From an uncultured Candidatus Actinomarina sp. (GTDB lineage Bacteria > Actinomycetota > Acidimicrobiia > Actinomarinales > Actinomarinaceae), in NCBI GenBank assembly GCA_902534495.1, contig CACAQC010000002.1:14517-78516 (forward strand): a stretch of 64,000 nucleotides of DNA. Direction: 5' to 3'. The notes under the pieces were generated by a model. That model had not been told where the DNA came from, ran no database searches, and worked only from the letters and a program-made list of their open reading frames with translations. The position numbers were made by a program, and so were the translations under genes. Numbering within the stretch: position 1 is the stretch's first letter; every line of letters starts with the position of its first letter. Shown here piece by piece: positions 35,547 to 62,365 of the stretch.

Positions 35547-35549
35547 AAT

Positions 35550-37892: not shown

Positions 37893-37894
37893 AT

Positions 37895-39912: not shown

Positions 39913-41295
39913 ATGTTTAAAAACTCTATATTTTACTCATTCGAAAAACTGTCTCCAAAGTTGATTTCTGTATTATTGCTACCAATTTTATTGCGACTTA
40001 TTAAACCAGAACTCTGGGCTGAAATTACTTTGTTATTAGCTTTGCAGCTTCTAATTTCTTATTTTCTAACACAAGGAGATGAGAGGTCTATCCTTAAATT
40101 TACCTCTGAAGAAGAGGTCCTTTACAGATCATTTACTAGCTTGTTGAGAATTAGTTTATTGGTTTTGATGATTTTTGAAATTGTCGGTTATTTTTTTGAA
40201 ACACTCCCGTTTTCGTTACAGTATGGTCTTCCCTTTAGGTTTATGTACGTTAGTACTGTAATTATTTCTGTAAATAAACTCCTACTTGCAAAATTAAGAT
40301 CCTTAGAGAAATCAACTGAGATTTTTAAATCTTCTTTTTTTGAATCTCTATTTATTAATTCGATTCAACTTTTATTTGTTGCAATTACAGTTCAACTTGA
40401 TGGTTATGATTCAAGAGTTATCGTAACGGTTTATTTTCTTGTACAACTATTTGGTAATTTGTTCAAATTTCTATACTTTGCAAAATCTATTAAATTTAAA
40501 TTAACACTTGTGCTAAAAAATTTATTAGCAAAAAAACCAAAAGACTTTTTAAAGTTTTCAAATATAAGTTTTTTGATTCTAATTTCTAATTATTTTGTTA
40601 ACTGGCAGGATAAATTTTTTGTTGAAATAATTTTTGGACTCAAAGAATTAGGTATCTATTCTGTAACAACAAGAATTTCAAATTTAGGACTAGTATTCAT
40701 CAGCTCGATTCTAATTGCTGCTTACTCTAAATATTGGCCAAAAACTATTGAGGACAAGACTGATTACCAAGTAAAACAAATAACTGGTGACATAATACTC
40801 ATTTCTTCGTATACGATGGCAGCGCTAATGTTAATAGTCGTGAGTGTTGGTCAATATGTTTTTCCAACTAGTTATGAAACTTCCATCAATATGATTGATT
40901 TAGCTACTCTACTCGTTTTCTTACAAACAATTGTTCTTATCTTTTCGATTGATCTTGGTAGGATTAGTAATCTAAAACGCATATATTTCTTTAATCTTGC
41001 AGTTATTATTCTTCAAGTATCTATATACAATCTTTATTCTTTTGAAAATCTGGAAGAAATTTTCATTTTGCAAATTGTCACAATGCTAATTTTCATAACT
41101 GCATTTTTTTGGAAAACAGTTCTTTTATTTAAAAAAGAATTTACAATTTCTTTACTTTTAATTTCTGCTTCAGTTCTTATTGCAACTTTTTACCAATCTA
41201 GCGGTTCTCAGATTCTCCAATTATCATCATTTCTTTTGAGCCTATTTTTTGCATCAAATGTATTGCAAAGATGGATAAAGCTTGACTCAAATTAA
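39913..41295 (+). CDS. Polytopic membrane protein; candidate Wzx-type oligosaccharide flippase (MOP superfamily)
   Basis: About 12 TM helices, 460 aa, within a glycan cluster. Confidence 0.4.
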   Translation: MFKNSIFYSFEKLSPKLISVLLLPILLRLIKPELWAEITLLLALQLLISYFLTQGDERSILKFTSEEEVLYRSFTSLLRISLLVLMIFEIVGYFFETLPFSLQYGLPFRFMYVSTVIISVNKLLLAKLRSLEKSTEIFKSSFFESLFINSIQLLFVAITVQLDGYDSRVIVTVYFLVQLFGNLFKFLYFAKSIKFKLTLVLKNLLAKKPKDFLKFSNISFLILISNYFVNWQDKFFVEIIFGLKELGIYSVTTRISNLGLVFISSILIAAYSKYWPKTIEDKTDYQVKQITGDIILISSYTMAALMLIVVSVGQYVFPTSYETSINMIDLATLLVFLQTIVLIFSIDLGRISNLKRIYFFNLAVIILQVSIYNLYSFENLEEIFILQIVTMLIFITAFFWKTVLLFKKEFTISLLLISASVLIATFYQSSGSQILQLSSFLLSLFFASNVLQRWIKLDSN

Positions 41296-42276
41296 ACTAT
41301 TTAAAATTTGTAAAGCACGATTTTTAGAAAAATTTTGTATGATTTTTTGTTGACTTTCATTGTGATTGTATTTACTCATTGAAAAGTTTATTAATTTATT
41401 TTTTAAATCTTGATAATTTTCACTTTCAAAAATTACACCATTTTTAGTCATTTCAATAATCTCCTTATTACCAGTTTTGCAATCAGATACTATTGAAAAT
41501 AAATTATTGTATTGTGCTTCAAGCAAGACATTGGACATTCCTTCTTTTCTTGATGGTAAAACGAAAAAACTGTAATTAGTCCAGATATTTTCCATGTTTA
41601 CGGGGTCTTTTTTTATTGAAACATTTTCATTACTTATTAGATTGCTCAAATTTTGATATTCTTCACCAACACCATATATATCAATTTTGATTTTTCTATC
41701 ATCCAACTCATTCATGGCTCTTATTAAAACGTCAATACCTTTATTATGTGTAAGTCTTGATACAACTACTCCATTTAATTTTGAAACCTTTTCCTTAAAT
41801 GGTTCATTTTTAGTGTCTTCAACTATGTTATTTAAATAATAAAATTTTTCACTTATCACAGGAAAACGGTTTTTATAGAAATCTAGGTTTTCTCTAGAAT
41901 TAAACAGTACAACATCAGCGTTTTTCAATATAAATTTTGTAAATCGTAAATCAATATTGTAATTTGCTACTCTAACAATGCTTTTATAATTGGCAATTCT
42001 TAATTTTTTAATTAATACATTTAATAAGTTTGGTGTAGGCAGAGTAGAAATAAAAATGTCTGGGACAAAAGTTTTCAGCACATTGACTAATTGAAAAAAG
42101 GAATTCCTTGTTTTTTTGACACCGATTACGGTGTGATCTCCAACACTGCTACTTTTTTTTGCTGTAACAAATAAACAATCGTTATCATCTTTTAAAGCAT
42201 TGAAAATTTTTACTAGCTGCCTTTCAGCCCCACTTGTATTGAAAGTTGATGTAAAGAAAATAATTTTTCTACTCAT
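41287..42276 (-). CDS. Glycosyltransferase family 4
   Basis: EGMSNVLLEAQYNNLFSIVSD matches the EX7E motif. Confidence 0.7.
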   Translation of the reverse strand: MSRKIIFFTSTFNTSGAERQLVKIFNALKDDNDCLFVTAKKSSSVGDHTVIGVKKTRNSFFQLVNVLKTFVPDIFISTLPTPNLLNVLIKKLRIANYKSIVRVANYNIDLRFTKFILKNADVVLFNSRENLDFYKNRFPVISEKFYYLNNIVEDTKNEPFKEKVSKLNGVVVSRLTHNKGIDVLIRAMNELDDRKIKIDIYGVGEEYQNLSNLISNENVSIKKDPVNMENIWTNYSFFVLPSRKEGMSNVLLEAQYNNLFSIVSDCKTGNKEIIEMTKNGVIFESENYQDLKNKLINFSMSKYNHNESQQKIIQNFSKNRALQILNSLI

Positions 42277-43063
42277 ATATCTCTCTTATTTTTTCTTCAT
42301 AGTTTTTGGAATATATCAAACCAAGATATTTACTACCATATTTTATTGGCAATTTATTCAAATTTTTTAATTCTTTTCTATACCAGAATAAATTATCTTC
42401 TAAATCGTCGAATATTATCAGATAATCCTTAGTATTTTTTAAAACCATCCTTAGTAAAAATAATTTTCCATTTAACGACTTATCAGAATCAAAATAATAA
42501 AAATTATATTTATTTTTCTTAATTAATCGCCCTGCAATAGCCCTGTCTTTTCCAATATATAGTTTCCAATTTTTTTTAAATGATTTACTGACTAAAATTC
42601 CAATATACTCCTCAGCATTTTTAATATCTGCTCTTGGTAAATCAATCGAGTCTAATGAAAATGCATTACTATTTTTTATACCTGAAGCAAGAATTGAATT
42701 TGTAGACAGTCCTAGCCATACACCAGTTTCTAGGGCTTTCATAGGATTTACTATTTTTAGTAGTATATAAAGTAATTCTGGATATTGCACACCGTGAAGC
42801 TTTACACTCTTTTTTTTGGAAATATCCAGAAATTTTTTCATGGCATCATTATTAATCTTTTTGAAGTCATCATATTCATAAGGAAATTTATTTTCTAAAA
42901 AATTTTTATCTAATTCTATGACAGATAAATCTTCTTTAAGTAGATTCAAAGCAACCTCTCTATTTTTTTTGTATTTATTTTTAAAAATATAAAATTTAAA
43001 AAATTGAAAACTTTTATATTTAAATGAATGTTTTATATTTAGGACCTTGCTTTTAAGCGACAT
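42269..43063 (-). CDS. Class I SAM-dependent O-methyltransferase (TylF/MycF-like sugar methyltransferase)
   Basis: LETGVWLGLSTNSI glycine-rich SAM fold; about 260 aa. Confidence 0.45.
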   Translation of the reverse strand: MSLKSKVLNIKHSFKYKSFQFFKFYIFKNKYKKNREVALNLLKEDLSVIELDKNFLENKFPYEYDDFKKINNDAMKKFLDISKKKSVKLHGVQYPELLYILLKIVNPMKALETGVWLGLSTNSILASGIKNSNAFSLDSIDLPRADIKNAEEYIGILVSKSFKKNWKLYIGKDRAIAGRLIKKNKYNFYYFDSDKSLNGKLFLLRMVLKNTKDYLIIFDDLEDNLFWYRKELKNLNKLPIKYGSKYLGLIYSKNYEEKIREIYE

Positions 43064-43079
43064 AGTATAATTATATAAA

Positions 43080-44768
43080 TTGTTTTTTAAAAAAATTAAC
43101 TATAAGCTATTTGTAGTTCTGACCCTATTTATTTTCAATGTAATAAATTATTTCAAATCTTCACTAATTTATGTTGCACTTTTCTCATTTTTATCTTTTG
43201 TGATATATTACTTTTCTAAGATAGATAGAAGTTTAATTCTAGATTCATTTTTATACACCAACGTAGTTTCTTTAGTGTTGCCAGCTAGAATTCCATTCTA
43301 CGGAAATCAATTTGCTTATTTCGATCACCTATACAAAGATGATATTGCATTTAATTCAATTAGCTATTCAAATTCACCTGATTATATTGGTTTTGATTTA
43401 TTATCACGATTTCTGTTATTAGGTGACAATTTAACCAATCTAAATGTAGCCTTATTTTTTGTAAATTTTTTAGCCTTTTATTCAATTTTTAGATTTTACA
43501 AAAATGCTTTTAACGACAAAAATATAACATTATTTAAGTTCCTGTTATTGATTATTTTAGTCGCAATTAATTTACCATCAGAATTTAATTCGTTTATTGG
43601 CTTTCCAAAGCTTTTATTAAATGGCACAGCAGGACTTGGAAGTTTTGGGCTAAGAGTATTCACACCAGCCAGCTTTTCATTCATAATGTTTTTGCCTCTT
43701 ACATTATTGTTAGAGAACAAAACTAAACAATTCTTTATAAGTGGATTAATTTTGTCATCGTTTCACTATTACATTTTCATAGTAATGATTGTTGTTTTCA
43801 TTTCATACATCTCATCAAAAAGAGAGAAGTTATACCTTTTCCAATCCTTTTTGTTTGTCATCACTCTTTTTTTCATACTGGATCAATATCAATTTTTTCA
43901 AGACTTAAGTGAACATTTAGTTAGGTTGAAAAATAAAAATGTTAATTTTAATTTGATACCTGTAATTTCCATTGGAACTATATTAAACAGCGGATTCGAT
44001 GGTAACTTTGTTTACTACATTAATTTAGAAAATTTTACTTTTTTCAAACCTGAGTTTTCAATTTCAAATTTTTCTCCAACTGTTGGTGTTTTTAATAACG
44101 AATCGAGCATACCGTTTGAAAAACTTATTTTGTTTTTTATCAGCTTGTATTTAACGAGAAATAACAAGAAGTTATTTAACATGTTGCTTTTTGCAGTAAG
44201 TGTTTTTTTAACGTCTCATTACTTGTTTTCAGTAAATTTATTTTCTTTTCATGCAATCTTCCAGCCTTACAGAATTATTCACTTATTTTCAATTGTTTGT
44301 TTTATGGTGATTATAAGTTCAATAAAATTAAGAAATTTTATAACATTTTCAAATAGTTTTTATTTAGTTCTAATACTTTTATTACCCACCTCTTTTTTCT
44401 TGTGGAAAACATACAGCTCACTTGAAAATTCATACAATATTGAAATATTTGAAAGTATAAAAAATATAGAAGAACAGTTAGTACTAATTCCACTTAATGA
44501 AACTAAAGATGTTTATTATTTTGGTTTTCCAAATATTTTTGTATCAACCTTTCCTCCTACCGATTACTTGAACAATGACATTATGAACTCTTATTTTGAT
44601 AAGTTGTCTCACTATGAAAATATATATTCCATGAAATCGTGTAAAGAAATCGAAAACTATATTGAAGACAACAACCTTGAAATTGAATATATTTTTATCC
44701 CTAAAGAGAATGATTTTTTCGTTAAAGACTGTAATTTAAACATAATTTTCTTTTCTGATTCTATTTGA
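43080..44768 (+). CDS. Large polytopic membrane protein; candidate polymerase or GT-C transferase
   Basis: More than 12 TM helices; 562 aa. Confidence 0.4.
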   Translation: MFFKKINYKLFVVLTLFIFNVINYFKSSLIYVALFSFLSFVIYYFSKIDRSLILDSFLYTNVVSLVLPARIPFYGNQFAYFDHLYKDDIAFNSISYSNSPDYIGFDLLSRFLLLGDNLTNLNVALFFVNFLAFYSIFRFYKNAFNDKNITLFKFLLLIILVAINLPSEFNSFIGFPKLLLNGTAGLGSFGLRVFTPASFSFIMFLPLTLLLENKTKQFFISGLILSSFHYYIFIVMIVVFISYISSKREKLYLFQSFLFVITLFFILDQYQFFQDLSEHLVRLKNKNVNFNLIPVISIGTILNSGFDGNFVYYINLENFTFFKPEFSISNFSPTVGVFNNESSIPFEKLILFFISLYLTRNNKKLFNMLLFAVSVFLTSHYLFSVNLFSFHAIFQPYRIIHLFSIVCFMVIISSIKLRNFITFSNSFYLVLILLLPTSFFLWKTYSSLENSYNIEIFESIKNIEEQLVLIPLNETKDVYYFGFPNIFVSTFPPTDYLNNDIMNSYFDKLSHYENIYSMKSCKEIENYIEDNNLEIEYIFIPKENDFFVKDCNLNIIFFSDSI

Positions 44769-44818
44769 TAAATTTTATCTGTTTTCTAAAGTATCATTAA
44801 TATATCAATGAAGTATCA

Positions 44819-45832
44819 ATGAATAATATGATTAATTTTGGAATGATAGGTTGTGGTTATTGGGGTAAAAATATCGCAAGAAATATTTATCAGAATGGAG
44901 ATTGTAACTTAAGCCATATTTCAGATTTAAATGAATCAAATTTAAGCTACATAAATAAAAACTATCCAAACACAAAAACTACTGTCAATGCTGACGAGGT
45001 ATTCAAGGATGCAGATTTAGATATTGTAGGTATTTTCACACCTCCGAAAACTCATTACAAGCTTATTATTAAAGCCCTTGAGAATGATAAACATGTATTA
45101 GTCACAAAACCTCTTTGCCTAAGTGCTTCAGAGGCAGAAAAAATAAAAGCAACTTCTGAAAAAAAACAGCTCCGTGTTTTTCTTGATGACACTTTTTTAT
45201 TTAGTGGTCCAGTCGCATTTTTAAAAAAATATTTTAAAGAGGAAAGCTTTGGAGACCTTGTTTTTATTCAGTCTTCAAGAATTAATTTGGGACTAATCCA
45301 AGATGATTGCAATGTCATATGGGATTTAGGACCACACGATATCGGAATATTAAATTATATTTTAGATTCTGAGCCAATCAAGGTTAGAGCAACTGGCTTC
45401 AACCCATTTGAAGGGATATATGATTTTGCATGTCACAGCAATTGTGATTTAGTATATGAAAATAATTTATTCGCCTCTGTAACACTAAGCTGGCTTTCTG
45501 CAATAAAAACAAGAAGAATGATTTTTGGAGGTACAAAAGAAACGGTGGTTTACGACCATCTTGATGAAGATCAACAAATTAAAATATTTAAACAAAGCAT
45601 ACTTCCTAGTGAAATAGATGCGAGCACTCAATTTGAGTATTCAGTTGGTGAAACTGTTTTACCTCTAATTGATAATATAGAGCCACTTAAAAAAGAGATA
45701 GAAGAAGTTGTGCGTTGTTTAAAAACAAATACAAAGTTTGTTTCAGATGTCGATCATGCAATAAAAACAATTAAAGTCATTGAGTCACTTCAGCTATCAT
45801 TGATGTCAAATAGTGAGTTTATAGATATATGA
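44819..45832 (+). CDS. Gfo/Idh/MocA-family NAD-dependent sugar oxidoreductase (WbpB/WlbA-like)
   Basis: N-terminal Rossmann motif INFGMIGCGYWGKN. Confidence 0.75.
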   Translation: MNNMINFGMIGCGYWGKNIARNIYQNGDCNLSHISDLNESNLSYINKNYPNTKTTVNADEVFKDADLDIVGIFTPPKTHYKLIIKALENDKHVLVTKPLCLSASEAEKIKATSEKKQLRVFLDDTFLFSGPVAFLKKYFKEESFGDLVFIQSSRINLGLIQDDCNVIWDLGPHDIGILNYILDSEPIKVRATGFNPFEGIYDFACHSNCDLVYENNLFASVTLSWLSAIKTRRMIFGGTKETVVYDHLDEDQQIKIFKQSILPSEIDASTQFEYSVGETVLPLIDNIEPLKKEIEEVVRCLKTNTKFVSDVDHAIKTIKVIESLQLSLMSNSEFIDI

Positions 45833-46836
45833 TCAAAAATGCTTCATTAGAAAACAAAAACGTTTTAATCACTGGAGGAGCGGGGTTTATCGGGTCTGAA
45901 TTAACTAAACAAGTTCTTTCACACGGTGCAAAGGTTTCGGTCGTTGACAATCTTGTGAATGGTAAAAAATCAAATTTAAATTTGGATGATAAAAACTTGA
46001 TGTTTTATGAAGAAGATATTAGAAATCAACAGGTTATGCAAAATCTTATTTCTAAATCAGATTATGTTTTCAACCTCGCATGTCTTGGTGTCAGACACTC
46101 CCTTCACTCACCTATTGAAAGTCACAGTGTAAATGCTGATGCAACTTTAAATCTACTTAAAATGAGTAGAGAAACTGATATTAAGAAATTCGTACATATC
46201 TCAACCTCAGAAGTCTACGGTACAGCAAAGTATGTTCCTATGACTGAAGAACACCCAACAGCCCCACACACTGTGTATGGCGCTTCAAAATTAGCAGGCG
46301 AAGCTTATGCACGCGCCTATAGTAAATCATTTAATACTAATACTGTTGTCATAAGACCATTTAATTCATATGGTTACAATTCTCATCACGAGGGCGACTC
46401 AGGAGAAGTGATACCTAAATTTATAATACGAGCATTGACAGGAAATCCACTCTATATTTTTGGTAATGGAGAACAGACTAGAGATTTTACATTTGTAACT
46501 GACACTGCAAATGCAATAATTCAAATAGGCTTAAACGATTTAACAAATGAAACTTATAATCTTGGTAGCGAGAACGAGATTACAGTAAATGAATTGGCAA
46601 AATTGATTTTACAACTTACTAATTCCTCCTCAGAAATTATTCATATCGAGCCACGACCAGGAGATGTATTGCGACTATTCTCTGATTCAAGTAAAGCATT
46701 TAATGAATTTGGGATTTCTCACGAAATTGATTTCGAAAAAGGATTAAAAAATTTAATCATGTATTATTCAAATTCAGATAAAGATTTAAATGAAATGCTA
46801 GAAGAAGATATTATTAAAAATTGGGAATCTGAATGA
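45829..46836 (+). CDS. NAD-dependent nucleotide-sugar epimerase/dehydratase (extended SDR)
   Basis: VLITGGAGFIGSEL and the YGASK catalytic dyad. Confidence 0.8.
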   Translation: MIKNASLENKNVLITGGAGFIGSELTKQVLSHGAKVSVVDNLVNGKKSNLNLDDKNLMFYEEDIRNQQVMQNLISKSDYVFNLACLGVRHSLHSPIESHSVNADATLNLLKMSRETDIKKFVHISTSEVYGTAKYVPMTEEHPTAPHTVYGASKLAGEAYARAYSKSFNTNTVVIRPFNSYGYNSHHEGDSGEVIPKFIIRALTGNPLYIFGNGEQTRDFTFVTDTANAIIQIGLNDLTNETYNLGSENEITVNELAKLILQLTNSSSEIIHIEPRPGDVLRLFSDSSKAFNEFGISHEIDFEKGLKNLIMYYSNSDKDLNEMLEEDIIKNWESE

Positions 46837-48050
46837 TACCTCTGACAAAACCCTCAATCGGTATTAATGAAATTAATTCAGTTTCAAACACACTAAAGTC
46901 TGGATGGATAACCCAAGGGCCTAAAGTACAAGAATTTGAAAAAAATTTTGTAAATTATACAGGAGCTAAGTACGCTGCAGCTGTATCAAGCTGTACTACC
47001 GGTTTACAGCTTTCCTTAATTTCATTAGGTGTTCAACCTGGAGATTTAGTTATAACTGTAAGCCATTCTTATATCGCTACTGCAAATTCTATACGGCATG
47101 CAATGGCAGAACCAGTTTTTGTTGATGTAGACAAATCTAACTACAATTTAGATTTAGAGAGTCTTAAAAATTTTATCTTAAATGAATGTGTAGTTAAAGA
47201 TGGAGTAATTCACTACAAAAAACATAAAAATTTGATAGAGAATAGTCCTACTTTAAAACATTTAAAAAAATTAAATGGTAGGATATCAGCAATTATTGTT
47301 CCACATCAAATAGGGATTCCAGCAAATGTAAAAGGGATAAAACAATTTTTAAATAATTACGAGATAGCAATAATAGAAGATGCAGCTTGTGCAATTGGAA
47401 GTATTTACGACCACAAAAAATACATAGGAAATCCAGTAGGGGATACAGTATGTTTTTCTTTTCATCCAAGAAAAGTAATAACAACTGGTGATGGAGGGAT
47501 GGTTACTTCAAACAATAAAAAAATTATAGAAAATATTAAATCCCTGAGAAATCATGGAATGAATATTGATCCCTATAAAAGAAAAAGTTCAAATAAATAT
47601 TATTTTGATGTGCATATAGACAATGGTTACAATTACCGACTTACAGACATTCAAGCAGCTATGGGTGTTGAGCAGCTTGCCAGAATTGATGAAATCGTAG
47701 ATGAGAGAAGACAATTAGGAGAAATGTATAAGACAGAATTATCAACCATTAAGGGCCTATCTACATTTGAAAATGAAAAAGGTAATTTAACTAATTGGCA
47801 GAGTTTTCCAATTAATATTTTAACAAGACAGAATTCAAAACAATTAGTTAGATATTTATTTGATAGAGGTGTATTTTCAAAAAGAGGAGTAATGAATTCT
47901 CACGAAGAACCACCATATATTGAACAAAGTTGGAATTTGAAAAACTCTGAGTATTTATTGAACAAAACTGTACTGCTTCCGATGTACAATGGTTTAACTA
48001 AAAAGGATATTAAATTTGTTTGTGAAAAAGTCAGTAAATTTTTTAAATAA
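46833..48050 (+). CDS. DegT/DnrJ/EryC1-family PLP-dependent sugar aminotransferase (ArnB-like)
   Basis: KSGWITQGPK...AAVSSCTTGL parallels ArnB SGWITTGPK...AVSSATAG. Confidence 0.85.
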   Translation: MIPLTKPSIGINEINSVSNTLKSGWITQGPKVQEFEKNFVNYTGAKYAAAVSSCTTGLQLSLISLGVQPGDLVITVSHSYIATANSIRHAMAEPVFVDVDKSNYNLDLESLKNFILNECVVKDGVIHYKKHKNLIENSPTLKHLKKLNGRISAIIVPHQIGIPANVKGIKQFLNNYEIAIIEDAACAIGSIYDHKKYIGNPVGDTVCFSFHPRKVITTGDGGMVTSNNKKIIENIKSLRNHGMNIDPYKRKSSNKYYFDVHIDNGYNYRLTDIQAAMGVEQLARIDEIVDERRQLGEMYKTELSTIKGLSTFENEKGNLTNWQSFPINILTRQNSKQLVRYLFDRGVFSKRGVMNSHEEPPYIEQSWNLKNSEYLLNKTVLLPMYNGLTKKDIKFVCEKVSKFFK

Positions 48051-48053
48051 AAA

Positions 48054-48974
48054 ATGTTAAGTATTGTAATACCTGTCTATAACGAAGAAGAAAATATAAA
48101 TAGTGTTATCGAAGAATTATTAGAAAATATTGATACTCAAAGTCCATATGAAATAATATTCGTAGACGACAGCTCTGATGACAATACTTTTTTAAACATA
48201 AAAGCTATAAATTTACAAAATAATAATATAAAAATATTACGACTAGCAAGAAGGTCTGGTAGCCATATTGCAACTAAAGCTGGAATAGATGCATCCTCTG
48301 GTGATAAGCTTTTAGTTATTTCTGGTGATGGACAAGAGGATCCCTCATTAATTAAAGATATGATATCAAATATTGCTGATGGTTTTGATATAGTTTGGGG
48401 TGTTAGAGATGTTAGAGAGGAGAATTTATTTTCAAGATTAATTACTAAAATTTTCTATAAGGGACTTGTAAGATTTACAAAAAATACTACAAACTATTCG
48501 GTTGATATTTCTAATGCTGATTTCTACATGTTGAGTAACAAAGTTATAAATGAATTAAAAAAAACCTCATTAAAAAATTCTTCTTTATTTGGTCTTTTAG
48601 CTTGGGTTGGTTTCAAGCAAACATCACTTCCTTATAAGAGAAGAAAACGTTTAAACGGAAATTCAAAGTGGGGATTAAAAAGTAAATTAAGCCTAGCTAT
48701 AGATTGGTATATTAGTTTTTCTCCATCACCACTTAGATTTGTAGTATTCTCGGCTATTACAATTGCACTAGCTGCTGTAATTTACACAGTTTATATTTTC
48801 TTAAATTACAACAATGCAACCGGCATACCAGGTTGGGCCTCAACAATTGTTTTGATGCTATTTTTTAACAGCTTTATAATTTTAATTCTTGGATTAAATA
48901 GTGAGTATTTATGGAGAACTTTTAACAATACATCAGATAAACCAATTTATTCAATTGAGGATAAAATTGTCTAA
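48054..48974 (+). CDS. GT2 polyprenyl-phosphate glycosyltransferase (ArnC/GtrB-like) with C-terminal TM helices
   Basis: LSIVIPVYNEEENI; DxD region; two C-terminal TM segments. Confidence 0.8.
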   Translation: MLSIVIPVYNEEENINSVIEELLENIDTQSPYEIIFVDDSSDDNTFLNIKAINLQNNNIKILRLARRSGSHIATKAGIDASSGDKLLVISGDGQEDPSLIKDMISNIADGFDIVWGVRDVREENLFSRLITKIFYKGLVRFTKNTTNYSVDISNADFYMLSNKVINELKKTSLKNSSLFGLLAWVGFKQTSLPYKRRKRLNGNSKWGLKSKLSLAIDWYISFSPSPLRFVVFSAITIALAAVIYTVYIFLNYNNATGIPGWASTIVLMLFFNSFIILILGLNSEYLWRTFNNTSDKPIYSIEDKIV

Positions 48975-48976
48975 AA

Positions 48977-49615
48977 ATGCAAAATGAGAATAAATTATTT
49001 TATATATTTGGCAAAGGAAAGCTAGCAAAAGACTTCATTGACTTTTTACTAAAGAATATTGATAAAAAAAATATAATTGTTATTCCTGAATTACCAGAAC
49101 CCTCATGGACCGAATCTTTAGTTGAATATTGTAATGAGTTAGGTATCAGACTTACCAGTTTTTCAGATGTAACTATTCGTACCCATGAATCTATTGGAAT
49201 TTCTATATATTTCTCAAAAATTTTTAAACAAGAACTTATTGATAAATTTGAATACTTTGTAAATTTACATAACGGACCATTACCAAGGTATCGGGGAGTA
49301 AATCCAATAAATTGGGCTTTAAAAAATAAGGAGAAACAACATGGAGTTACACTTCATACAATTGAATCTGGTATAGATACTGGAAAAATTCTTGATCAAA
49401 TTATGTTTCCAATTAATGATGATATGGAAGTTATTGATGTCTACAATTTATGTCTGAGCAATGGAATTAAAATATTAGAAAGATCAATCTTTAATTTAGA
49501 CAATATAGAGCCAATTAAACAAGACGATAGTTTTTCAACTTACTATTCCAAAAAAGATTTTGAAAAACTGGGAGATAGAAAATATTTTACGAGAGATACG
49601 TTAGAAGAAACTTAA
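48977..49615 (+). CDS. Sugar N-formyltransferase (Formyl_trans_N; ArnA N-domain-like)
   Basis: HNGPLPRYRGVNPINWAL matches the H-x-SLLP-x-RG formyltransferase motif. Confidence 0.75.
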   Translation: MQNENKLFYIFGKGKLAKDFIDFLLKNIDKKNIIVIPELPEPSWTESLVEYCNELGIRLTSFSDVTIRTHESIGISIYFSKIFKQELIDKFEYFVNLHNGPLPRYRGVNPINWALKNKEKQHGVTLHTIESGIDTGKILDQIMFPINDDMEVIDVYNLCLSNGIKILERSIFNLDNIEPIKQDDSFSTYYSKKDFEKLGDRKYFTRDTLEET

Positions 49616-49622
49616 ACTTTAA

Positions 49623-50267
49623 TTATTTTTCATCATCTTTGTATATTTTTAAAATATATTTTGTTCCATCAATTACAAAAAAGGCTGGGTAATTTTCATT
49701 GTCAACAACTCTCAGTAAATTAAATTGAGACTTTAACGATTCATTAATATTAAGTTCAGAATCTTTGGGGTATCTTCTTGGAAAATATGTCGCATCACCA
49801 TTTTGTTCAACCCCCTCTACATTTGGATATTCATTTACATATCTTAAAATTAACTCATATGTTTTTTCTGCCTGAATTTCTCGCAAATCTTGACCAAGCT
49901 CGTTACCCGACAACTGTACATTTTCTTTGTAGTATATTTTTCCATCATCAATTTTTTCATTTGCTTCAAATAAAGTAAAGTAAAGCTCATTTTTGTCATT
50001 AAGAACTTCCCAAGTAATTGGCGCAAACCCTCGTCCTTCAGGAAGATTAGATGGGTGAGGTACAACATTAGATTTATTTTTACTTAGCCCATCTTTAGTT
50101 ACAATTTTGAGAGAGGATATAAAAGCAGCAATGTCTCCTTCCTTAAGTTCATCCTCACTTTTAGCAATATTAACAACGTGTCCTAGCTCAGTTAATTTCT
50201 CGATAAAAATTTTGTTTGTATCCCAAAACCAAGATTTTTTATTATCACACAGCAGATTAATTATCAT
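49623..50267 (-). CDS. Second formyltransferase-family protein
   Basis: VVPHPSNLPEGRGFAPITWEVLN. Confidence 0.6.
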   Translation of the reverse strand: MIINLLCDNKKSWFWDTNKIFIEKLTELGHVVNIAKSEDELKEGDIAAFISSLKIVTKDGLSKNKSNVVPHPSNLPEGRGFAPITWEVLNDKNELYFTLFEANEKIDDGKIYYKENVQLSGNELGQDLREIQAEKTYELILRYVNEYPNVEGVEQNGDATYFPRRYPKDSELNINESLKSQFNLLRVVDNENYPAFFVIDGTKYILKIYKDDEK

Positions 50268-50421
50268 ACTTCATTTTATATTATTCATTAGTAATCAGCA
50301 TTAAATAACAAATACACAAGACATTTTAAAAACAAATATTTACGTAATGATAAAATATATTAAAGAAAGGTAAGCTACATCAATTAATCAAATTTAAATT
50401 GAAATAATTAAAGTTTTTAGC

Positions 50422-51525
50422 ATGACAAAAACAGTCCCATTTAACGATTTAACTAGAATTCATAATTCAATTGAAGATAAGATTATGAATAAATTCAGTA
50501 AAATTGTGAAAAAAAATTCATTTGTCTTGAATAAAGAAGTAGAAGAATTTGAAAATATGTTTTCTAAGTTTTCAAATTCAAATTTTACAATAGGTTGTGC
50601 AAACGGTACAGATGCCATTGAATTAATTCTAAGAGGACTAGGAATTGGCGTTGGAGACGAAGTAATAATCCCAACAAATTCATATATTGCGACTGCATAT
50701 GCAGTCTCAAGAACAGGTGCGAAACCTGTATTTGTTGACAATGATGAATTTTATTTGATAAATACAAATGAAGTTAAGAAGAAAATTTCCAAAAAAACAA
50801 AAGCAATTATTGCAGTAAATTTATATGGACAAAAGGCAGACTTAAAAACACTTGCTCAAATCTCAAAACAGAATTCACTTTATTTAATTGAGGACTCAGC
50901 TCAATCACATGGTGCGAGAAATAGTAAGTTTTCTAACAATTATTCAATTGGAGCTGCTTACAGTTTTTATCCTGGAAAAAATTTAGGTGCTTGGGGAGAT
51001 GGAGGTGCAGTTACAACTGATAACAAAAAGCTTTATGAAAAAATGAAGTTAATTAGAAATCAGGGAAGTATAGAAAAATATATACATCCAGAAATAGGAT
51101 TTAATTCTAGACTCCAGCCTCTTCAAGGAGTTGTTTTATCTGAAAAAATTAAAAAATTAGCATCCTGGAACAAATTAAGAAATGAGGTAGCAGATATCTA
51201 TTTTGAGAAATTAAAAAAAATTGATTCAATTGTATTGCCAAAAGTACGAGATGGAAACTCCCATGTTTGGCATCTTTTTGTAATTAGAACTAAAAATCGA
51301 GATAAAATACTCAATGAATTTACAAGTCACAAAGTTGAATTCGGTATCCATTATCCGATACCAATCCACAGACAAAAAGCCTATAAAGATCATAAACAGT
51401 TTAATTCAAAAATTAAAAATGCAGATAATTATGGTGGCCAACTGCTGTCTTTACCAATTTTCCCACATATGAAAAACGATGAAATAAACCGAGTAGTTTC
51501 AGTATTAGAAAAATATCACATCTGA
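50422..51525 (+). CDS. DegT/DnrJ/EryC1-family sugar aminotransferase (second copy)
   Basis: PLP fold with conserved SFYPGKNLG (Lys) region. Confidence 0.85.
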   Translation: MTKTVPFNDLTRIHNSIEDKIMNKFSKIVKKNSFVLNKEVEEFENMFSKFSNSNFTIGCANGTDAIELILRGLGIGVGDEVIIPTNSYIATAYAVSRTGAKPVFVDNDEFYLINTNEVKKKISKKTKAIIAVNLYGQKADLKTLAQISKQNSLYLIEDSAQSHGARNSKFSNNYSIGAAYSFYPGKNLGAWGDGGAVTTDNKKLYEKMKLIRNQGSIEKYIHPEIGFNSRLQPLQGVVLSEKIKKLASWNKLRNEVADIYFEKLKKIDSIVLPKVRDGNSHVWHLFVIRTKNRDKILNEFTSHKVEFGIHYPIPIHRQKAYKDHKQFNSKIKNADNYGGQLLSLPIFPHMKNDEINRVVSVLEKYHI

Positions 51526-51530
51526 AAAAG

Positions 51531-52517
51531 TTATTTATTATTAATGTTAGAGATTCTAGTTTCAAAGAATGTCTCTATAGATGACTCGATTATTAGAAAA
51601 TCAAATTCCTCAGCGTTGCTATCAAGGTCAATATCTTCTGACCACCTTTTATATTCCAAATTAAAATAATTAGATAAGTAAGTATTTGGTGCATAGGCTT
51701 CATCAAAAAATGAGTCATGGATAATCAATACATCTTTTTTTACTTTAGGAATAGGCTGAATAATGTATTCACTAGAGTTTGATTCAAATTTAATTAAACC
51801 CAATCTCTCAAGAACATTGTTATTTTCTTGAATAAGTCCAAGTTTGATTAATTTAAAACTTTCATCTGAATTTGTTACTTTTAGAATCTCCATTAGTGCC
51901 AAATTAAGTCCAAAATTATTCCAATGAGTATCACCAAATTCAAAATAGCTTTCATTTCCTTTGTAAAGTTCATATAAATTAATTGAGTTTAAATCGGGAT
52001 TCCTATTAATGAATTGGTCATAACTTTTGGTAAATTCTTTACATAAAAAATTATTTTGGAAATAGTTAAGGTATTGAGAATCTATCTCTTGCTTAAGTGG
52101 AATTAAGAGAAAAATTATTTTATTTAGATATTCGATCTCAAAATTTAGTTCAACATCATTATTAAACGACTGGCAAGATTTTATTTTTGGGAACAAGTTT
52201 CCATTTTTACCAAAAAAGACTTCAGTATCGAAAAACTGAGAATCAAAAACAGATTTATCCTGCAAATACCAGCTAAAATCAGCTACATAACTTAGAGTCG
52301 AATTTCTAATTTGAGATTTAAAAATATATGTTTCGATCTTATTTTTGAGCTCTATTCGATTTGTTGAAAATATTAAATTTAGCAAGCTTCTTTCTTCACC
52401 TAGACTATTAACGGTATTTACATAGCTAAAGACATTTTCAGCTGGAAGAAAAATTCCTGAAACAGAAACAAGTAATAAAATTAATATTATAAAAATTGTA
52501 AATACTTTCTCCCTCAT
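51531..52517 (-). CDS. Secreted AlgX/AlgJ-like SGNH-type polysaccharide O-acetyltransferase partner
   Basis: Signal peptide; GDTHWNNFG resembles the AlgJ/AlgX DxHW catalytic motif; adjacent to an MBOAT gene. Confidence 0.5.
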   Translation of the reverse strand: MREKVFTIFIILILLLVSVSGIFLPAENVFSYVNTVNSLGEERSLLNLIFSTNRIELKNKIETYIFKSQIRNSTLSYVADFSWYLQDKSVFDSQFFDTEVFFGKNGNLFPKIKSCQSFNNDVELNFEIEYLNKIIFLLIPLKQEIDSQYLNYFQNNFLCKEFTKSYDQFINRNPDLNSINLYELYKGNESYFEFGDTHWNNFGLNLALMEILKVTNSDESFKLIKLGLIQENNNVLERLGLIKFESNSSEYIIQPIPKVKKDVLIIHDSFFDEAYAPNTYLSNYFNLEYKRWSEDIDLDSNAEEFDFLIIESSIETFFETRISNINNK

Positions 52518-52518
52518 G

Positions 52519-53946
52519 CTAAAACCTGAAATATATAAATGGATCTACAGAGGATGCTATAACTAAAACAAGCGAAAAGATAAACATAGAAATCGTAAGA
52601 AACCGATTTTCAAATAATTTTTTTGATACCTTGATGTTCAATAATGATGCAATACACATCGAGGCAACAATTAAAAATTTTAAATTGAAGTACTGCACGG
52701 CAATTGGTAGGAAATCATCATTTACTAAATCATAAGTAAATATCGAAGAAATTATATCAATAGTATCTTGAGAGCTTTTAGAAAAAAATGGAACCCAAGT
52801 AATGGAAATCAAAATAAAAGTAAGAATTCTATTTGAAAATAACTTTTTGTAATTTAATAGTTTTTCAGTTGTCAAAAATAAACCGTGTAAGAATCCCCAT
52901 AATAAAAAATTTACAGTTGCTCCATGCCAAAGTGCTGTCAAGAAAAAAGTAATCCATAAATTTCTGAAATTTTTATATTTTGATACCCTATTTCCTCCTA
53001 AAGGAATATAAACATATACTTTAAAAAAATTAGAGAGAGTCATGTGCCAACGTTGCCAAAACTCTCTAAAAGATTTTGAAAGATATGGTCTATTAAAATT
53101 CTCAGGTAGATTGAACCCAAAAAGTAGCCCAATTCCAATTGCTATGTCACAATATGCTGAAAAATCAAAATATATTTGAAATGTATAACTCAGAACCAAT
53201 ATAGCTGATGATGCAAAAGAAAATGTAAAGACGTGATTACTATTTATGTATATCGAAGTAATCTGTGCAAGCGTATCAGCAATCAAAAACTTTTTGATTA
53301 AGCCCAACGAAATTCTATACAGACCTGTTTGTAGAGACTCTATATTTACTACTTTTGAATTAAGACCATTTCTAAATGTGGTTATATCAACAATTGGCCC
53401 AGCTAATAACTGTGGAAAAAAAGTTAGGAATGTAAAAATCTCAAACCCATTCTCAGAGTTTTCAACTCTTCTTTTGTCAAAATAGTATGCAATGGATTGA
53501 AAGGTAAAAAAAGAAAGACCAATAGGAAAGTTTTCAACTATATAGGATGGGGTCTCAATACTAATAAAATTAAAAACAACAAAGGAATATTTAAAGATAA
53601 TTAAGGGCGTCAATAATAATGCTACAAATAATGGGTTATTGAAAACATTTTTTTCAATCTGTAATTTTAGTAATCCTGCTAGGAATAAAAGAATAATCAA
53701 TAAATACCCATTGTCTAAGTAATAAAAATATGCACTTAAAACACCCAAGTAAAACGTTTTTGTTGTTTTGCTTACACTAAATAAATTTATTAATAATGAG
53801 AAAGGTAAAAAAAGAAAAAGAAAAGAGTTGGAAGTTAACAGCATATAAGATTTTAAACATATACACTTTTTAAGATTTGAATTTATTAAATTTTGAACTT
53901 GAGAGATAAATTTATTTTTTAATTGCCACCATAAGAATAAAAACAA
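52519..53946 (-). CDS. MBOAT-family membrane O-acyltransferase (AlgI/DltB-like)
   Basis: FWQRWHMTLSNFFKVYVYIPLGGNR, the MBOAT signature including the catalytic His. Confidence 0.8.
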   Translation of the reverse strand: MFLFLWWQLKNKFISQVQNLINSNLKKCICLKSYMLLTSNSFLFLFLPFSLLINLFSVSKTTKTFYLGVLSAYFYYLDNGYLLIILLFLAGLLKLQIEKNVFNNPLFVALLLTPLIIFKYSFVVFNFISIETPSYIVENFPIGLSFFTFQSIAYYFDKRRVENSENGFEIFTFLTFFPQLLAGPIVDITTFRNGLNSKVVNIESLQTGLYRISLGLIKKFLIADTLAQITSIYINSNHVFTFSFASSAILVLSYTFQIYFDFSAYCDIAIGIGLLFGFNLPENFNRPYLSKSFREFWQRWHMTLSNFFKVYVYIPLGGNRVSKYKNFRNLWITFFLTALWHGATVNFLLWGFLHGLFLTTEKLLNYKKLFSNRILTFILISITWVPFFSKSSQDTIDIISSIFTYDLVNDDFLPIAVQYFNLKFLIVASMCIASLLNIKVSKKLFENRFLTISMFIFSLVLVIASSVDPFIYFRF

Positions 53947-54979: not shown

Positions 54980-55055
54980 TGGTGGCCAGAGGCAGAATCG
55001 AACTGCCGACCCCTTGTTTTTCAGACAAGTGCTCTACCGACTGAGCTATCTGGCC
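54980..55055 (-). tRNA. tRNA-Phe (GAA)
   Basis: Reverse complement GGCCAGATAGCTCAGTCGGTAGAGCACTTGTCTGAAAAACAAGGGGTCGGCAGTTCGATTCTGCCTCTGGCCACCA folds into a cloverleaf; anticodon loop CTGAAAA. Confidence 0.9.
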
Positions 55056-55058
55056 AAA

Positions 55059-55136
55059 TGGCGGGGACGACGGGATTCGAACCCGCGACCTCCTGCGTGA
55101 CAGGCAGGCGTGAACTCCAGACTTCACCACGCCCCC
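55059..55136 (-). tRNA. tRNA-Asp (GTC)
   Basis: Reverse complement GGGGGCGTGGTGAAGTCTGGAGTTCACGCCTGCCTGTCACGCAGGAGGTCGCGGGTTCGAATCCCGTCGTCCCCGCCA; anticodon arm CCTGC-CTGTCAC-GCAGG is identical to E. coli tRNA-Asp. Confidence 0.85.
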
Positions 55137-55186
55137 AACTCTTTAATAAAGAATACTACATAAGCTAACTAAAAAAAATTGATTTG

Positions 55187-55259
55187 TGGGTCGGGTGGGA
55201 ATCGAACCCACGACCTTGAGCTTAAAAGGCTCCTGCTCTGCCGATTGAGCTACCGACCC
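55187..55259 (-). tRNA. tRNA-Lys (TTT)
   Basis: Reverse complement GGGTCGGTAGCTCAATCGGCAGAGCAGGAGCCTTTTAAGCTCAAGGTCGTGGGTTCGATTCCCACCCGACCCA; anticodon loop CTTTTAA. Confidence 0.85.
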
Positions 55260-56538: not shown

Positions 56539-57672
56539 ATGAAAATTACATATATAACGTATCAAGGCATACCAAGCACCAACACCTACGCTCATGGAAT
56601 TTGGACTTTCTCAATAATAAAGCACCTAGTCAAAAAGAATTACGAGGTAGATCTTGTTTTTCCACTTCGTGAAAAAAATTCTACGTCTGATGTTTCAAAA
56701 CTTCAAGATTATTACGAAATGAATTTAGATTTTGAAGTCAATCCTACAAAGCATTACTTACCATTTGGAAGAATTAATATTTTTACAAAATACATGTATA
56801 TTTTTAGCCACATTTTGTGGGCTTATTATGTAACTAGAAAATATAAAAATCAACATACAAATATAATTTTTACTCTCTCTGATTGGGTTTTTTATTTTTT
56901 GTCTAAAAAGAATGTAAGAGTAATTTATGAATGTCACAATGTTACTAATATAAGAAAAAAACTTGTCACAAAATCATTAGAGTCTATTAATTCAAAAATT
57001 ATTTGTATCAACAAATATATCAAGGAAGATTTAAATCTTAAAGACGGAGTTAATATTACTGTGCTTGAAAGCGGATTTGATCAAGATTTATTTTATGACA
57101 GCTCATCTAAACATGACAAAATAAAAATAGTCTATTCCGGAAATTTACAAAGATTCGGAAAAAGCAGAGGGGTAGTAGAGATTATTGAATACTTTCTGGA
57201 ATCAAAATATAGTAAAAGTTCAGAGTTGCATATTTTTGGTGGCCCAGATGATATTGCAAGTAATTTAAATAGTCAGTTTAAATCAGAGAATGTACATATT
57301 CATGGTCATGTCAAAAGGACTGAATTAGCAGCAGTCCTGAGTGAGGCACAGATTGGAATTTTAACAAATGATGACAGCATTCACTCGCAGAGACATACTT
57401 CACCGATGAAATATTATGAATATCTAGGATCTGGTATGAATGTAATTGCTACCAATTCACTTGCTCATAAAGACCTCCCCATTCAGAATGCAATTAATTA
57501 TTTTGACCTAAATGATAAAGAAAGTTTTTTTGATGCGCTTGATAATGCAATAAAAAATTATGATGATGAAAAAGTAATTGATGTTTCAAGATTAACAATG
57601 GATTACAGAATGAATAAATTTATTGATTTTGTTAATGCGCGTCCGGAAGGACTCGAACCCTCAACCCCCTGA
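56539..57672 (+). CDS. Glycosyltransferase family 4; 3' end overlaps tRNA-Arg
   Basis: HTSPMKYYEYLGSGMNVIATN matches the EX7E motif. Confidence 0.65.
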   Translation: MKITYITYQGIPSTNTYAHGIWTFSIIKHLVKKNYEVDLVFPLREKNSTSDVSKLQDYYEMNLDFEVNPTKHYLPFGRINIFTKYMYIFSHILWAYYVTRKYKNQHTNIIFTLSDWVFYFLSKKNVRVIYECHNVTNIRKKLVTKSLESINSKIICINKYIKEDLNLKDGVNITVLESGFDQDLFYDSSSKHDKIKIVYSGNLQRFGKSRGVVEIIEYFLESKYSKSSELHIFGGPDDIASNLNSQFKSENVHIHGHVKRTELAAVLSEAQIGILTNDDSIHSQRHTSPMKYYEYLGSGMNVIATNSLAHKDLPIQNAINYFDLNDKESFFDALDNAIKNYDDEKVIDVSRLTMDYRMNKFIDFVNARPEGLEPSTP

Positions 57673-57711
57673 TCCGAAGTCAGGTGCTCTATCCAGTTGA
57701 GCTACGGACGC
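57638..57711 (-). tRNA. tRNA-Arg (TCG)
   Basis: Reverse complement GCGTCCGTAGCTCAACTGGATAGAGCACCTGACTTCGGATCAGGGGGTTGAGGGTTCGAGTCCTTCCGGACGC; anticodon loop CTTCGGA. Confidence 0.8.
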
Positions 57712-59948: not shown

Positions 59949-59951
59949 ATC

Positions 59952-62362: not shown

Positions 62363-62365
62363 AAA

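Follow-up and report, generated by a model that had tools for sequence, protein, structure and literature searches.

Gene Content and Organisation of the Locus

The 64,000-nucleotide stretch of DNA analysed here in its entirety (the window) derives from an uncultured Candidatus Actinomarina sp. and carries, inside an envelope-glycan island of this Ca. Actinomarinales bacterium, a unit of eight genes spanning positions 43080-51525, which is considered below as a candidate system for loading a formylated amino sugar onto a lipid carrier and transferring it outside the cell membrane. Family assignments were made by Pfam and NCBIfam profile searches and by PDB sequence searches of the window proteins. 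The first gene (43080-44768, + strand) encodes TM562, an orphan membrane protein proposed to be a GT-C-fold transferase on account of weak fold matches. It is followed on the same strand by a Gfo/Idh/MocA oxidoreductase (hereafter Gfo; 44819-45832; Pfam GFO_IDH_MocA, 3.7e-21), a proposed nucleotide-sugar C3 dehydrogenase; an extended short-chain dehydrogenase/reductase (SDR; 45829-46836; Pfam Epimerase, 5.6e-59), a proposed 4-keto-forming 4,6-dehydratase or decarboxylase; DegT405, a C4-class aminotransferase dependent on pyridoxal phosphate (PLP; 46833-48050; Pfam DegT, 2.4e-92); GT2, a polyprenyl-phosphate glycosyltransferase of the GtrB/PgfS/ArnC family (48054-48974; Pfam Glycos_transf_2, 2.2e-25); and FT1, a sugar N-formyltransferase of the 3-N class (48977-49615; Pfam Formyl_trans_N, 1.8e-16, 60.9 bits). 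FT2, a formyltransferase-like protein of the 1ZGH type proposed to formylate (or acylate) a C4 amine, is encoded on the opposite strand (49623-50267, -), and the unit closes with DegT367, a sugar C3 aminotransferase (50422-51525, +).

The six open reading frames (ORFs) described in an initial annotation of the interval 44819-50267 were recovered exactly, and Pfam and NCBIfam agree with the families named there; the SGWITQGPK motif stands at residues 23-31 of DegT405. DegT367 lies just beyond that interval, yet is part of the same unit. The five plus-strand genes between 44819 and 49615 are separated from their neighbours by 4-nucleotide overlaps or 3-nucleotide gaps, which is consistent with a single operon, and the cassette proteins are kept at 50-70% identity in diverged relatives, so that the ORFs can be taken as real genes rather than chance ones. 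A promoter and terminator scan gave signal no better than shuffled sequence in the AT-rich DNA of the locus.

The assignment of the host as a WhiB-encoding, low-GC actinobacterium was borne out: the genome has a GC content of ~30%, a WhiB-like ORF lies near 21.1 kb of the window, the window DnaB is identical to a protein labelled “Acidimicrobiaceae bacterium”, and the best match of FT1 among named genomes is in Ca. Actinomarina sp. AG-919-G14. The region from ~28 to 64 kb corresponds to the published flexible island fGI1 of Ca. Actinomarinales, with which it has in common a GC content of ~28%, internal tRNA genes, and envelope polysaccharide genes (PMC7771536). This one order-wide flexible island is thought to determine phage susceptibility, and the authors of the same paper stated the wall composition of Ca. 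Actinomarinales to be unknown (PMC7771536).

The Polyprenyl-Phosphate Glycosyltransferase

In the PDB search, residues 2-303 of GT2 align end to end with residues 28-328 of GtrB (5EKP; 1.2e-50); GT2 also aligns over its full length with residues 10-312 of ArnC, represented by three structures (3.2e-27). The best NCBIfam model is PgfS at 186 bits, and the ArnC model PRK10714 scores 105 bits against a cut-off of 529. Two transmembrane (TM) helices occupy residues 230-248 and 263-281, so the C-terminal membrane anchor claimed for this protein is present. The catalytic loop reads SGDGQEDP, as against DADLQDPP in GtrB, with the second Asp and the Gln retained; the same pattern is found in the Tara relative L019 and a similar one in the relatives L100, L041, and L102, all described below. 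By sequence, then, GT2 is a bona fide member of the GtrB/ArnC/DPMS family, and not an orthologue of ArnC. Scanning metagenomes with GT2 returned only copies from the same species and generic GtrB-like genes of 24-36% identity, a result which does not separate the hypotheses on TM562 discussed below.

The Proposed C3 Module: Gfo, DegT367, and FT1

FT1 is a single-domain protein of 212 amino acids, and its formyltransferase class, like that of FT2, was assigned by E-value ranking. Its closest PDB relatives are WlaRD (2.4e-22), 7n7a (3.5e-22), QdtF (1.2e-17), and the formyltransferase 5uij (9.1e-17), with ArnA (4.9e-11), Fmt (4.7e-9), and PurN (2.5e-7) ranking lower; on the NCBIfam ArnA model it reaches 68 bits against a cut-off of 777. 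The catalytic triad Asn96-His98-Asp134 is invariant across 28 family members. The substrates of WlaRD, QdtF, and FdtF are dTDP-3-amino-3,6-dideoxyhexoses, made via RmlB and a 3,4-ketoisomerase.

The gene neighbourhood of FT1 was surveyed with the family alignment as query, using one genome per species and a radius of 9 kb, which yielded 80 loci from many phyla. A Gfo homologue was present in 56/80 of these and a DegT367-type gene in 52/80, often as a contiguous Gfo-FT1-DegT set, with an SDR in 15/80, a DegT405-type gene in 7/80, and a GT2 in 6/80. On metagenomic contigs, too, FT1 homologues adjoin a Gfo/Idh/MocA gene and a DegT gene whose best match in the window is DegT367 and not DegT405, and among 27 predicted viral contigs from IMG/VR carrying an FT1 homologue (L183-L208), 16 have Gfo and 22 a C3-type DegT. 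The conserved partners of FT1 being a C3 dehydrogenase/aminotransferase pair, FT1 would formylate the amine which that pair installs, which is not the chemistry of ArnA. A T4-like contig (L013/L014) combines the FT1-Gfo-DegT(C3) triad with gp44, gp45, gp62, and RegA, together with two further DegT genes and GT10-like genes. None of the FT1 matches in GenBank phages is close: they are partial and do not exceed 32% identity.

Among NCBIfam models, Gfo scores highest on that for UDP-GlcNAc 3-dehydrogenase, at 121 bits against a cut-off of 450, and its PDB match is 7bvj (3.1e-9); the protein has the GxGxxG motif, and TKP (with Lys97) where EKP is expected. DegT367 matches QdtB over residues 6-362 (1.5e-92), followed in the PDB by the transaminase 2oga (5.7e-81), the aminotransferase 5u1z (4.8e-79), and WbpE (1.3e-64); its PLP motif is SFYPGK, with the Lys at residue 186.

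The Proposed C4 Module: SDR, DegT405, and FT2

The SDR carries the motifs STSEVYG and YGASK. Its NCBIfam scores are 200 bits for LegB, 199 bits for dTDP-glucose 4,6-dehydratase (RmlB), and 64 bits for ArnA (cut-off 777), and its PDB matches are the epimerases 4zrm and 6dnt (173 and 164 bits), human UXS1 (153 bits), and RmlB (~136 bits). The best-matching UDP-hexose 4-epimerases have SSTGGAIYG or SSSSAVYG in place of STSEVYG. In the enzymes that yield a 4-keto product, namely 4,6-dehydratases and decarboxylases, a Glu two residues past the catalytic Thr is characteristic, and the Ser-Glu that follows the catalytic Thr is conserved in L019 and L100.

DegT405, of 405 amino acids, has its PLP lysine (K214) in the motif SFHPRK and an insertion of ~30 residues. 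NCBIfam ranks PseC (283 bits) and LegC (268 bits) above ArnB (PRK11658; 234 bits against a cut-off of 631), all three scores being below cut-off, and the PDB matches to 8vr3/8vr5 (4e-47), ArnB (1.3e-46), and perosamine synthase (9e-46) are practically equal. The entries 8VR2/8VR3/8VR5 thus supply the best PDB matches of DegT405 and also a match of the SDR.

FT2 finds its best PDB match in 1zgh (1.8e-10), a structural-genomics protein of 260 amino acids that carries the label Fmt, followed by ArnA (1.2e-7), WbkC (1.2e-6), and VioF (1.7e-6), with full-length Fmt at 2e-3. It matches the NCBIfam ArnA and Fmt models as well, the former at 53 bits against a cut-off of 777. Asn67, His71, and Asp107 are invariant in its family. 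Both formyltransferases had been expected to resemble sugar N-formyltransferases more than Fmt or PurN, and by E-value ranking they do. The candidate identity of FT1 or FT2 as a housekeeping Fmt or PurN was rejected, as both are too short, occur in glycan contexts, and rank nearer to the sugar enzymes.

Homologues of FT2 at ~45% identity occur in a Clostridiaceae genome (Clostridiaceae bacterium M8S5, CP118523; L015) and on two metagenomic contigs (L016, L017). There they are flanked by the CMP-transferase and NeuB genes of nonulosonic-acid clusters located close to flagellin genes. The DegT protein adjacent to them belongs to the DegT405 class, and one of the SDRs shares 36% identity with that of the window. 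This context fits action of FT2 on a 4-amino-4,6-dideoxy intermediate, as far as gene content can indicate, and in their sequences the SDR, DegT405, and FT2 look like a C4 module of the LegB/LegC type. The L015 and L016 clusters adjoin flagellin and Maf genes and, besides a PIG-L-family gene, encode another formyltransferase-like protein, in which Formyl_trans_N and Formyl_trans_C_2 are combined; the gene content of the three clusters suggests nonulosonic acids that are N-formylated or carry some other unusual N-acyl group. For the window itself such a pathway was rejected: domain scans of the window ORFs found no NeuB-type synthase, no CMP-transferase, and no hydrolysing 2-epimerase. The pathway of the window would thus stop at a hexose (or pentose) that goes to a lipid carrier.

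TM562 and Its Genomic Setting

TM562 has ~11 TM segments. TM1 leads into a loop of ~75 residues that contains short helices and the invariant Asp82; the polytopic core comes next, and the protein ends in a soluble domain in which Cys521 and Cys551 are both invariant. No Pfam, NCBIfam, or PDB sequence match was obtained for it, even with a family profile, in searches that comprised Pfam on 18 members at E<5, the profile against PDB sequences at E<10, and Pfam on the most distant members. An exhaustive hmmsearch of 1.84 billion representative proteins returned 22 relatives, all of the same family. AlphaFold2 gave a model with pLDDT 77 and pTM 0.83, and Foldseek searches of the PDB with this model and with that of a 41%-identical relative had GT-C enzymes as all of their top matches, namely PglB, DPY19, and ALG6 for TM562, and DPY19, STT3, PglB, and AglB for the relative, with EmbC, Pmt4, and ArnT lower. 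The domain layout predicted for TM562 would be typical of GT-C enzymes, in which the first loop is long and carries an Asp and the C-terminus forms a soluble domain.

Upstream of TM562 lie a Wzx-like MOP flippase (39913-41295, +), a GT4 glycosyltransferase (41287-42276, -), and a Methyltransf_24-like protein (42269-43063, -), all assigned by Pfam. The Wzx-like, GT4, and methyltransferase-like genes precede the TM562 homologue in the relatives L019, L100, and L104 as well; in L101 and L102 the Wzx-like and GT4 genes are kept upstream and the methyltransferase-like gene is truncated or fragmentary. Identities across these relatives are 47-82%. A TM562 homologue heads the cassette in all five versions examined, and a TM-anchored GtrB-like GT2 is found in four of the five, including L102, where it follows the TM562 homologue even though the sugar genes there consist only of a nucleoside triphosphate (NTP)-transferase and an SDR. 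A fixed backbone with TM562, joined to an exchangeable sugar cassette that mostly brings its own GT2, is the signature of a GT2/GT-C pair.

In L101 (11723-20261), the TM562 homologue is followed by Gfo, a C3 DegT, an AsnB-like amidotransferase of 623 amino acids, a 370-amino-acid SDR, a 910-amino-acid protein of unknown family, and a GT2 of 245 amino acids. This glycotype is a different amino-sugar cassette in the same slot, its sugar possibly amidated.

Conservation of the Cassette in Relatives

In diverged relatives all eight members (the membrane protein, Gfo, two aminotransferases, the SDR, GT2, and two formyltransferases) stay together. On a Tara contig (L018/L019) whose proteins are 50-70% identical to those of the window, the order is TM564-Gfo-DegT(C3)-SDR-DegT(C4)-GT2-FT1, with FT2 convergent, and the stops and starts of successive genes in the operon overlap. 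In L100, the Gfo, C3 DegT, SDR (STSEVYG), C4 DegT, and GT2 are orthologous at 41-63% identity, and both formyltransferases have been swapped for non-orthologous ones, a two-domain ArnA-N/Fmt type and a 248-amino-acid type. In both L019 and L100 the operon includes the DegT367-class gene, placed after Gfo and before the SDR. Further afield, Ca. Solirubrobacter pratensis (L041) has a Gfo or C3 DegT, an SDR, a C4 DegT, a GtrB-like GT2, a two-domain formyltransferase, and FT1, and a contiguous Gfo-FT1-DegT(C3)-SDR-DegT(C4) set occurs in Myxococcales, a proteobacterium, and another metagenome-assembled genome. As judged from these gene sets, the requirement for two formyltransferases persists through non-orthologous replacement; the presence of two such genes on opposite strands, which the initial annotation had called unusual, is better seen as a conserved requirement of the cassette.

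Proposed Pathway and Alternative Explanations

Taken together, the cassette may be read as a three-component lipid-phosphate-sugar glycosylation system, whose cargo would most likely be a single 3,4-diamino di-N-formyl sugar and whose GT-C-like transferase would be TM562, a reading to which we assign roughly even chances. In the cytoplasm, Gfo would oxidise the C3 hydroxyl of a nucleotide sugar, DegT367 would transaminate the 3-keto product, and FT1 would N-formylate the resulting 3-amine. The SDR, with its TSE motif, would yield a 4-keto sugar by 4,6-dehydration or decarboxylation; DegT405 would transaminate this, and FT2 would N-formylate (or acylate) the 4-amine. The finished sugar would then be moved by GT2 onto polyprenyl phosphate and, after flipping, TM562 would pass it from the lipid to a wall glycan or protein. 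The sequence and neighbourhood comparisons establish the classes of the enzymes, the family of GT2 with its membrane anchor, and the linkage of the genes; the regiochemistry and the order of these steps, the number of sugars, the role of TM562, and the identity of the sugar and of its acceptor are inferred. A candidate cargo would be a 2-acetamido-3,4-diformamido-tetradeoxyhexose derived from UDP- or GDP-GlcNAc, or, should the SDR act as a decarboxylase, the corresponding pentose. The initial annotation likewise anticipated delivery of a lipid-linked N-formyl amino sugar to the outside of the membrane, and this function remains the most likely one in view of the polyprenyl-phosphate GT2, the amino-sugar and formyltransferase genes, and the probable GT-C neighbour.

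A number of observations weigh against this reading. None of the cassette enzymes reaches an NCBIfam equivalog cut-off, and their functions are predicted from sequence. In GT2, Ser replaces the first Asp of the DxD-like loop. FT2 falls below the Pfam Formyl_trans_N cut-off (24.3 bits against 26.1), and its Asn stands at -4 from the His and not at -2, a displacement of two residues. The fold matches of TM562 are weak (E 0.013-1.6, TM-score ~0.3), with no sequence link to any GT-C family, and the TM562 homologue of L101 is paired with only a 245-amino-acid GT2 that has no TM helices. No small flippase of the GtrA, GtcA, or ArnE/F type was found, there being no small multi-TM ORF near the operon and only the Wzx-like MOP protein at 39913-41295. 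The SDRs beside C4 DegT genes in other phyla have STASVYG and not STSEVYG, so that those extended cassettes are not strictly equivalent to that of the window. Finally, the C3 triad stands alone in most of the 80 surveyed loci, including that of a Ca. Actinomarina single-amplified genome (L020) with no GT2 within 9 kb, from which it follows that the triad can produce a finished sugar unaided.

This last observation lends itself to a different view, possible though doubtful, in which the cassette makes two sugars. Gfo, DegT367, and FT1 would supply a soluble nucleotide 3-formamido sugar to a Leloir glycosyltransferase of the island, for which several GT4 and GT1 enzymes could serve, and only the product of the SDR, DegT405, and FT2 (a 4-formamido-4,6-dideoxyhexose or a 4-formamido pentose) would be loaded by GT2. 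The triad is self-sufficient and mobile, being found on viral contigs as well, and an SDR, a C4 aminotransferase, a formyltransferase, and a GT2 make up the classical Arn-type set alone. Against this, three diverged operon versions, each ending in GT2, have their C3 and C4 genes interleaved and translationally coupled, and both modules recur jointly in Solirubrobacter, Myxococcales, and Flavobacteriales loci; the retention of two formyltransferases despite gene replacement is compatible with either model. Since both modules are interleaved in one operon, a single doubly aminated sugar is the most likely product, and the two aminotransferases and two formyltransferases kept through gene replacement, the interleaved and coupled gene order, and GT2 at the operon end favour one sugar modified at both C3 and C4.

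The role given to TM562 in the single-sugar system may also be questioned. It is unlikely, but conceivable, that TM562 has an enzymatic role in the island backbone, for instance as a ligase, a transporter, or a polymerase like Wzy, and that a different GT-C protein uses the product of GT2. TM562 is always located within the Wzx-GT4-methyltransferase backbone, even in L101 where a TM-anchored GT2 is absent; RodA appears at rank 8 among its weak fold matches; and the window has other large membrane proteins of unknown family, at 30559-32076 and from 63585 onward. Conversely, the top folds retrieved with two models are PglB, STT3, AglB, DPY19, and ALG6 rather than Wzy or WaaL, the layout with its long first loop, invariant Asp, and C-terminal domain with an invariant Cys pair is typical of GT-C enzymes, and a GtrB-like GT2 is adjacent in four of the five cassettes, one of them with unrelated sugar genes. 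Of the two nearby GT-C proteins postulated by the initial annotation, the one at 43080-44768 is indeed a multi-TM protein with weak GT-C fold matches, whereas the ORF at 63585 is truncated, has no family match, and adjoins a different GT2.

A genuine Arn-type pathway, in which UDP-GlcA would be decarboxylated, aminated by an ArnB-like enzyme, formylated by an ArnA-like enzyme, and loaded by an ArnC-like enzyme to give polyprenyl-phosphate-L-Ara4FN for an ArnT-like GT-C, is highly improbable: although the T-S-E motif of the SDR is carried by the ArnA and UXS families too, human UXS1 is among its top PDB matches, DegT405 matches ArnB, GT2 aligns over its full length with ArnC structures, and the relatives L100 and L041 have a two-domain ArnA-N/Fmt-type formyltransferase, the ArnA, ArnB, and ArnC models score only 64-68, 234, and 105 bits against cut-offs of 777, 631, and 529, all beneath the scores of LegB, PseC, and PgfS, the closest relatives of FT1 are 3-N-formyltransferases and its linked genes, a Gfo and a C3 aminotransferase, would be needless in Arn, no Ugd, ArnD-type deacetylase-family, or ArnE/F-type gene is present in the 64-kb window, and an actinobacterium has no lipid A. 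The specific identities first given to these genes are not supported. FT1, likened to the ArnA formyltransferase domain, is nearest to WlaRD and QdtF, and its partners are Gfo and a C3 aminotransferase; the SDR and DegT405, the latter likened to ArnB, score higher on the LegB/RmlB and PseC/LegC models than on ArnA and ArnB; and for GT2, likened to ArnC, the matches to GtrB and PgfS outrank the ArnC match by E-value and bit score, respectively.

Comparison with Known Systems

The Arn system (PmrHFIJKLM) proceeds through a 4-keto nucleotide sugar, DegT transamination, N-formylation, transfer by a two-TM GT2 onto polyprenyl phosphate, and a GT-C enzyme outside, and the cassette would follow the same course, its GT2 aligning end to end with ArnC and its DegT405 matching ArnB. 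It departs from Arn in that no gene reaches an Arn equivalog cut-off, FT1 is of the single-domain 3-N type, a C3 oxidation/amination module and a second formyltransferase are added, and the host lacks lipid A. Ugd, an ArnD-type deformylase, an ArnE/F-type flippase, and a recognisable ArnT are all missing from the 64-kb window; matches to the polysaccharide-deacetylase, SMR/EamA, and PMT/ArnT families were likewise absent among the larger ORFs scanned across it. With no deformylase, the formyl groups would probably remain on the final glycan. On these sequence comparisons, the Arn analogy holds only as logic, not as a copy of the pathway.

A parallel in gene arrangement is offered by the three-component systems (GtrA/GtrB/GtrC; CsbB/GtcA/YfhO; GacI/GacL; PgfS/PgfM; mycobacterial PpgS/Rv3779), which likewise place a GtrB-family GT2 beside a large polytopic protein with GT-C-like fold matches, a pairing that in the cassette persists when the sugar genes are swapped. 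Unlike them, the cassette comes without a GtrA/GtcA flippase, its putative GT-C belongs to no described family, and its cargo would be an elaborately modified amino sugar and not Glc, GlcNAc, or GalNAc.

The C3 module recalls two groups of enzymes. WlaRD, QdtF, and FdtF, which go with the aminotransferases QdtB and WlaRG, are the best solved relatives of FT1, whose Asn-His-Asp triad is invariant, and DegT367 matches QdtB; however, the conserved partner of FT1 is a Gfo/Idh/MocA protein, no RmlA or ketoisomerase gene is adjacent, and FT1 does without their C-terminal extra domains (212 amino acids against 274-417). With GnnA/GnnB and WbpB/WbpE (WlbA/WlbC) the module shares a Gfo/Idh/MocA and DegT C3 aminotransferase pair, WbpE being among the matches of DegT367, but the follow-up enzyme in the cassette is a formyltransferase and not an acetyltransferase, and the match of Gfo to the dehydrogenase model is well short of its cut-off. 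As for the C4 module, LegB is the top-scoring model for the SDR and PseC/LegC for DegT405, and homologues of FT2 occur in nonulosonic-acid clusters; the absence of a NeuB-type synthase, a CMP-transferase, and a hydrolysing 2-epimerase sets the window apart from these.

Amination at both C3 and C4 has a natural precedent in 2,3,4-triacetamido-2,3,4-trideoxy-L-arabinose, a sugar of the O-antigen of Psychrobacter cryohalolentis K5T (PMC8040287). Its synthesis would be expected to need a dehydrogenase and an aminotransferase for C3, then a decarboxylase and an aminotransferase for C4, enzyme classes that match those of the cassette, but the sugar carries acetyl and not formyl groups and is used as a nucleotide sugar in an O-unit rather than as a lipid-phosphate donor. 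No di-N-formyl diamino sugar was found in the searchable literature.

What would be novel within the three-component theme is probably the di-N-formyl diamino sugar, together with the orphan GT-C-like transferase predicted from sequence and model. At the same time the cassette varies familiar themes, and it does so in a hypervariable glycotype island that has been described before and in which variation is expected. It bears on the wall and surface chemistry of abundant low-GC marine actinobacteria, which is unknown (PMC7771536). If the proposal is true, one glycotype of Actinomarinales uses the lipid-phosphate-sugar and GT-C route with a doubly formylated diamino sugar, Arn-like logic extends past lipid A, a new GT-C-like family is defined, and two uncharacterised formyltransferase families come into view, that of the FT1 triad in many phyla and phages and that of the 1ZGH-type FT2 in flagellin-glycosylation clusters. 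More tentatively, and with the odds against so full a picture, the cassette would make an undescribed 3,4-diformamido envelope sugar (triamino if derived from GlcNAc), delivered as a polyprenyl-phosphate donor by a GtrB-type enzyme, TM562 would be the founder of a new lineage-restricted GT-C family, and the C3 genes would form an uncharacterised, widely mobile cassette for UDP-linked 3-formamido sugars across many phyla and marine phages.

Neighbouring Modules

Several further modules of the window deserve mention. At 33344-39787 lie genes for an iron-dependent alcohol dehydrogenase (Fe-ADH), a thiamine pyrophosphate (TPP)-dependent phosphonopyruvate decarboxylase, a phosphoenolpyruvate (PEP) mutase fused to a cytidylyltransferase, a TagF-like transferase, and a 630-amino-acid protein with nine TM segments and a weak sulfatase/LtaS-like domain. 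These five genes remain together in L019 and L101, and the module suggests, for Actinomarinales, a wall glycan bearing a phosphonate, either of the hydroxyethyl- or of the aminoethyl-phosphonate kind. Immediately after the cassette, at 51531-53946 (-), a DltB/MBOAT-family acyltransferase of 475 amino acids is followed by a 328-amino-acid protein that matches no family and has a single TM helix at its N-terminus; extracytoplasmic O-acylation pairs usually show this layout.

A second cassette, with the same logic, occupies 58914-64000. Its Gmd is bona fide, with a score of 450 bits that exceeds the cut-off, and it further encodes an SDR resembling Fcl, a cupin with a weak WbuC-like match, a C4 DegT similar to LegC/PseC, and a methyltransferase. 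Its GT2 (62366-63049), of 227 amino acids, resembles AglJ and dolichyl-phosphate-hexose transferases and has no TM helices. The truncated membrane ORF from 63585 begins DWDSY...PSRPPGFPLY, resembling a GT-C N-terminus; since it follows its own Gmd-to-methyltransferase cassette, it more likely belongs to a second system of the same kind, as the partner of the GT2 at 62366-63049.

Genes for tRNA-Phe, tRNA-Asp, and tRNA-Lys (54980-55259, -) and for tRNA-Arg (57637-57711, -) all fall within the island, in agreement with the tRNA hot spots reported for fGI1 of Ca. Actinomarinales (PMC7771536). Outside it, the selB and selA genes for selenocysteine incorporation (21196-24161, -) adjoin the WhiB-like gene (~21.0-21.2 kb, +) in this highly streamlined genome.

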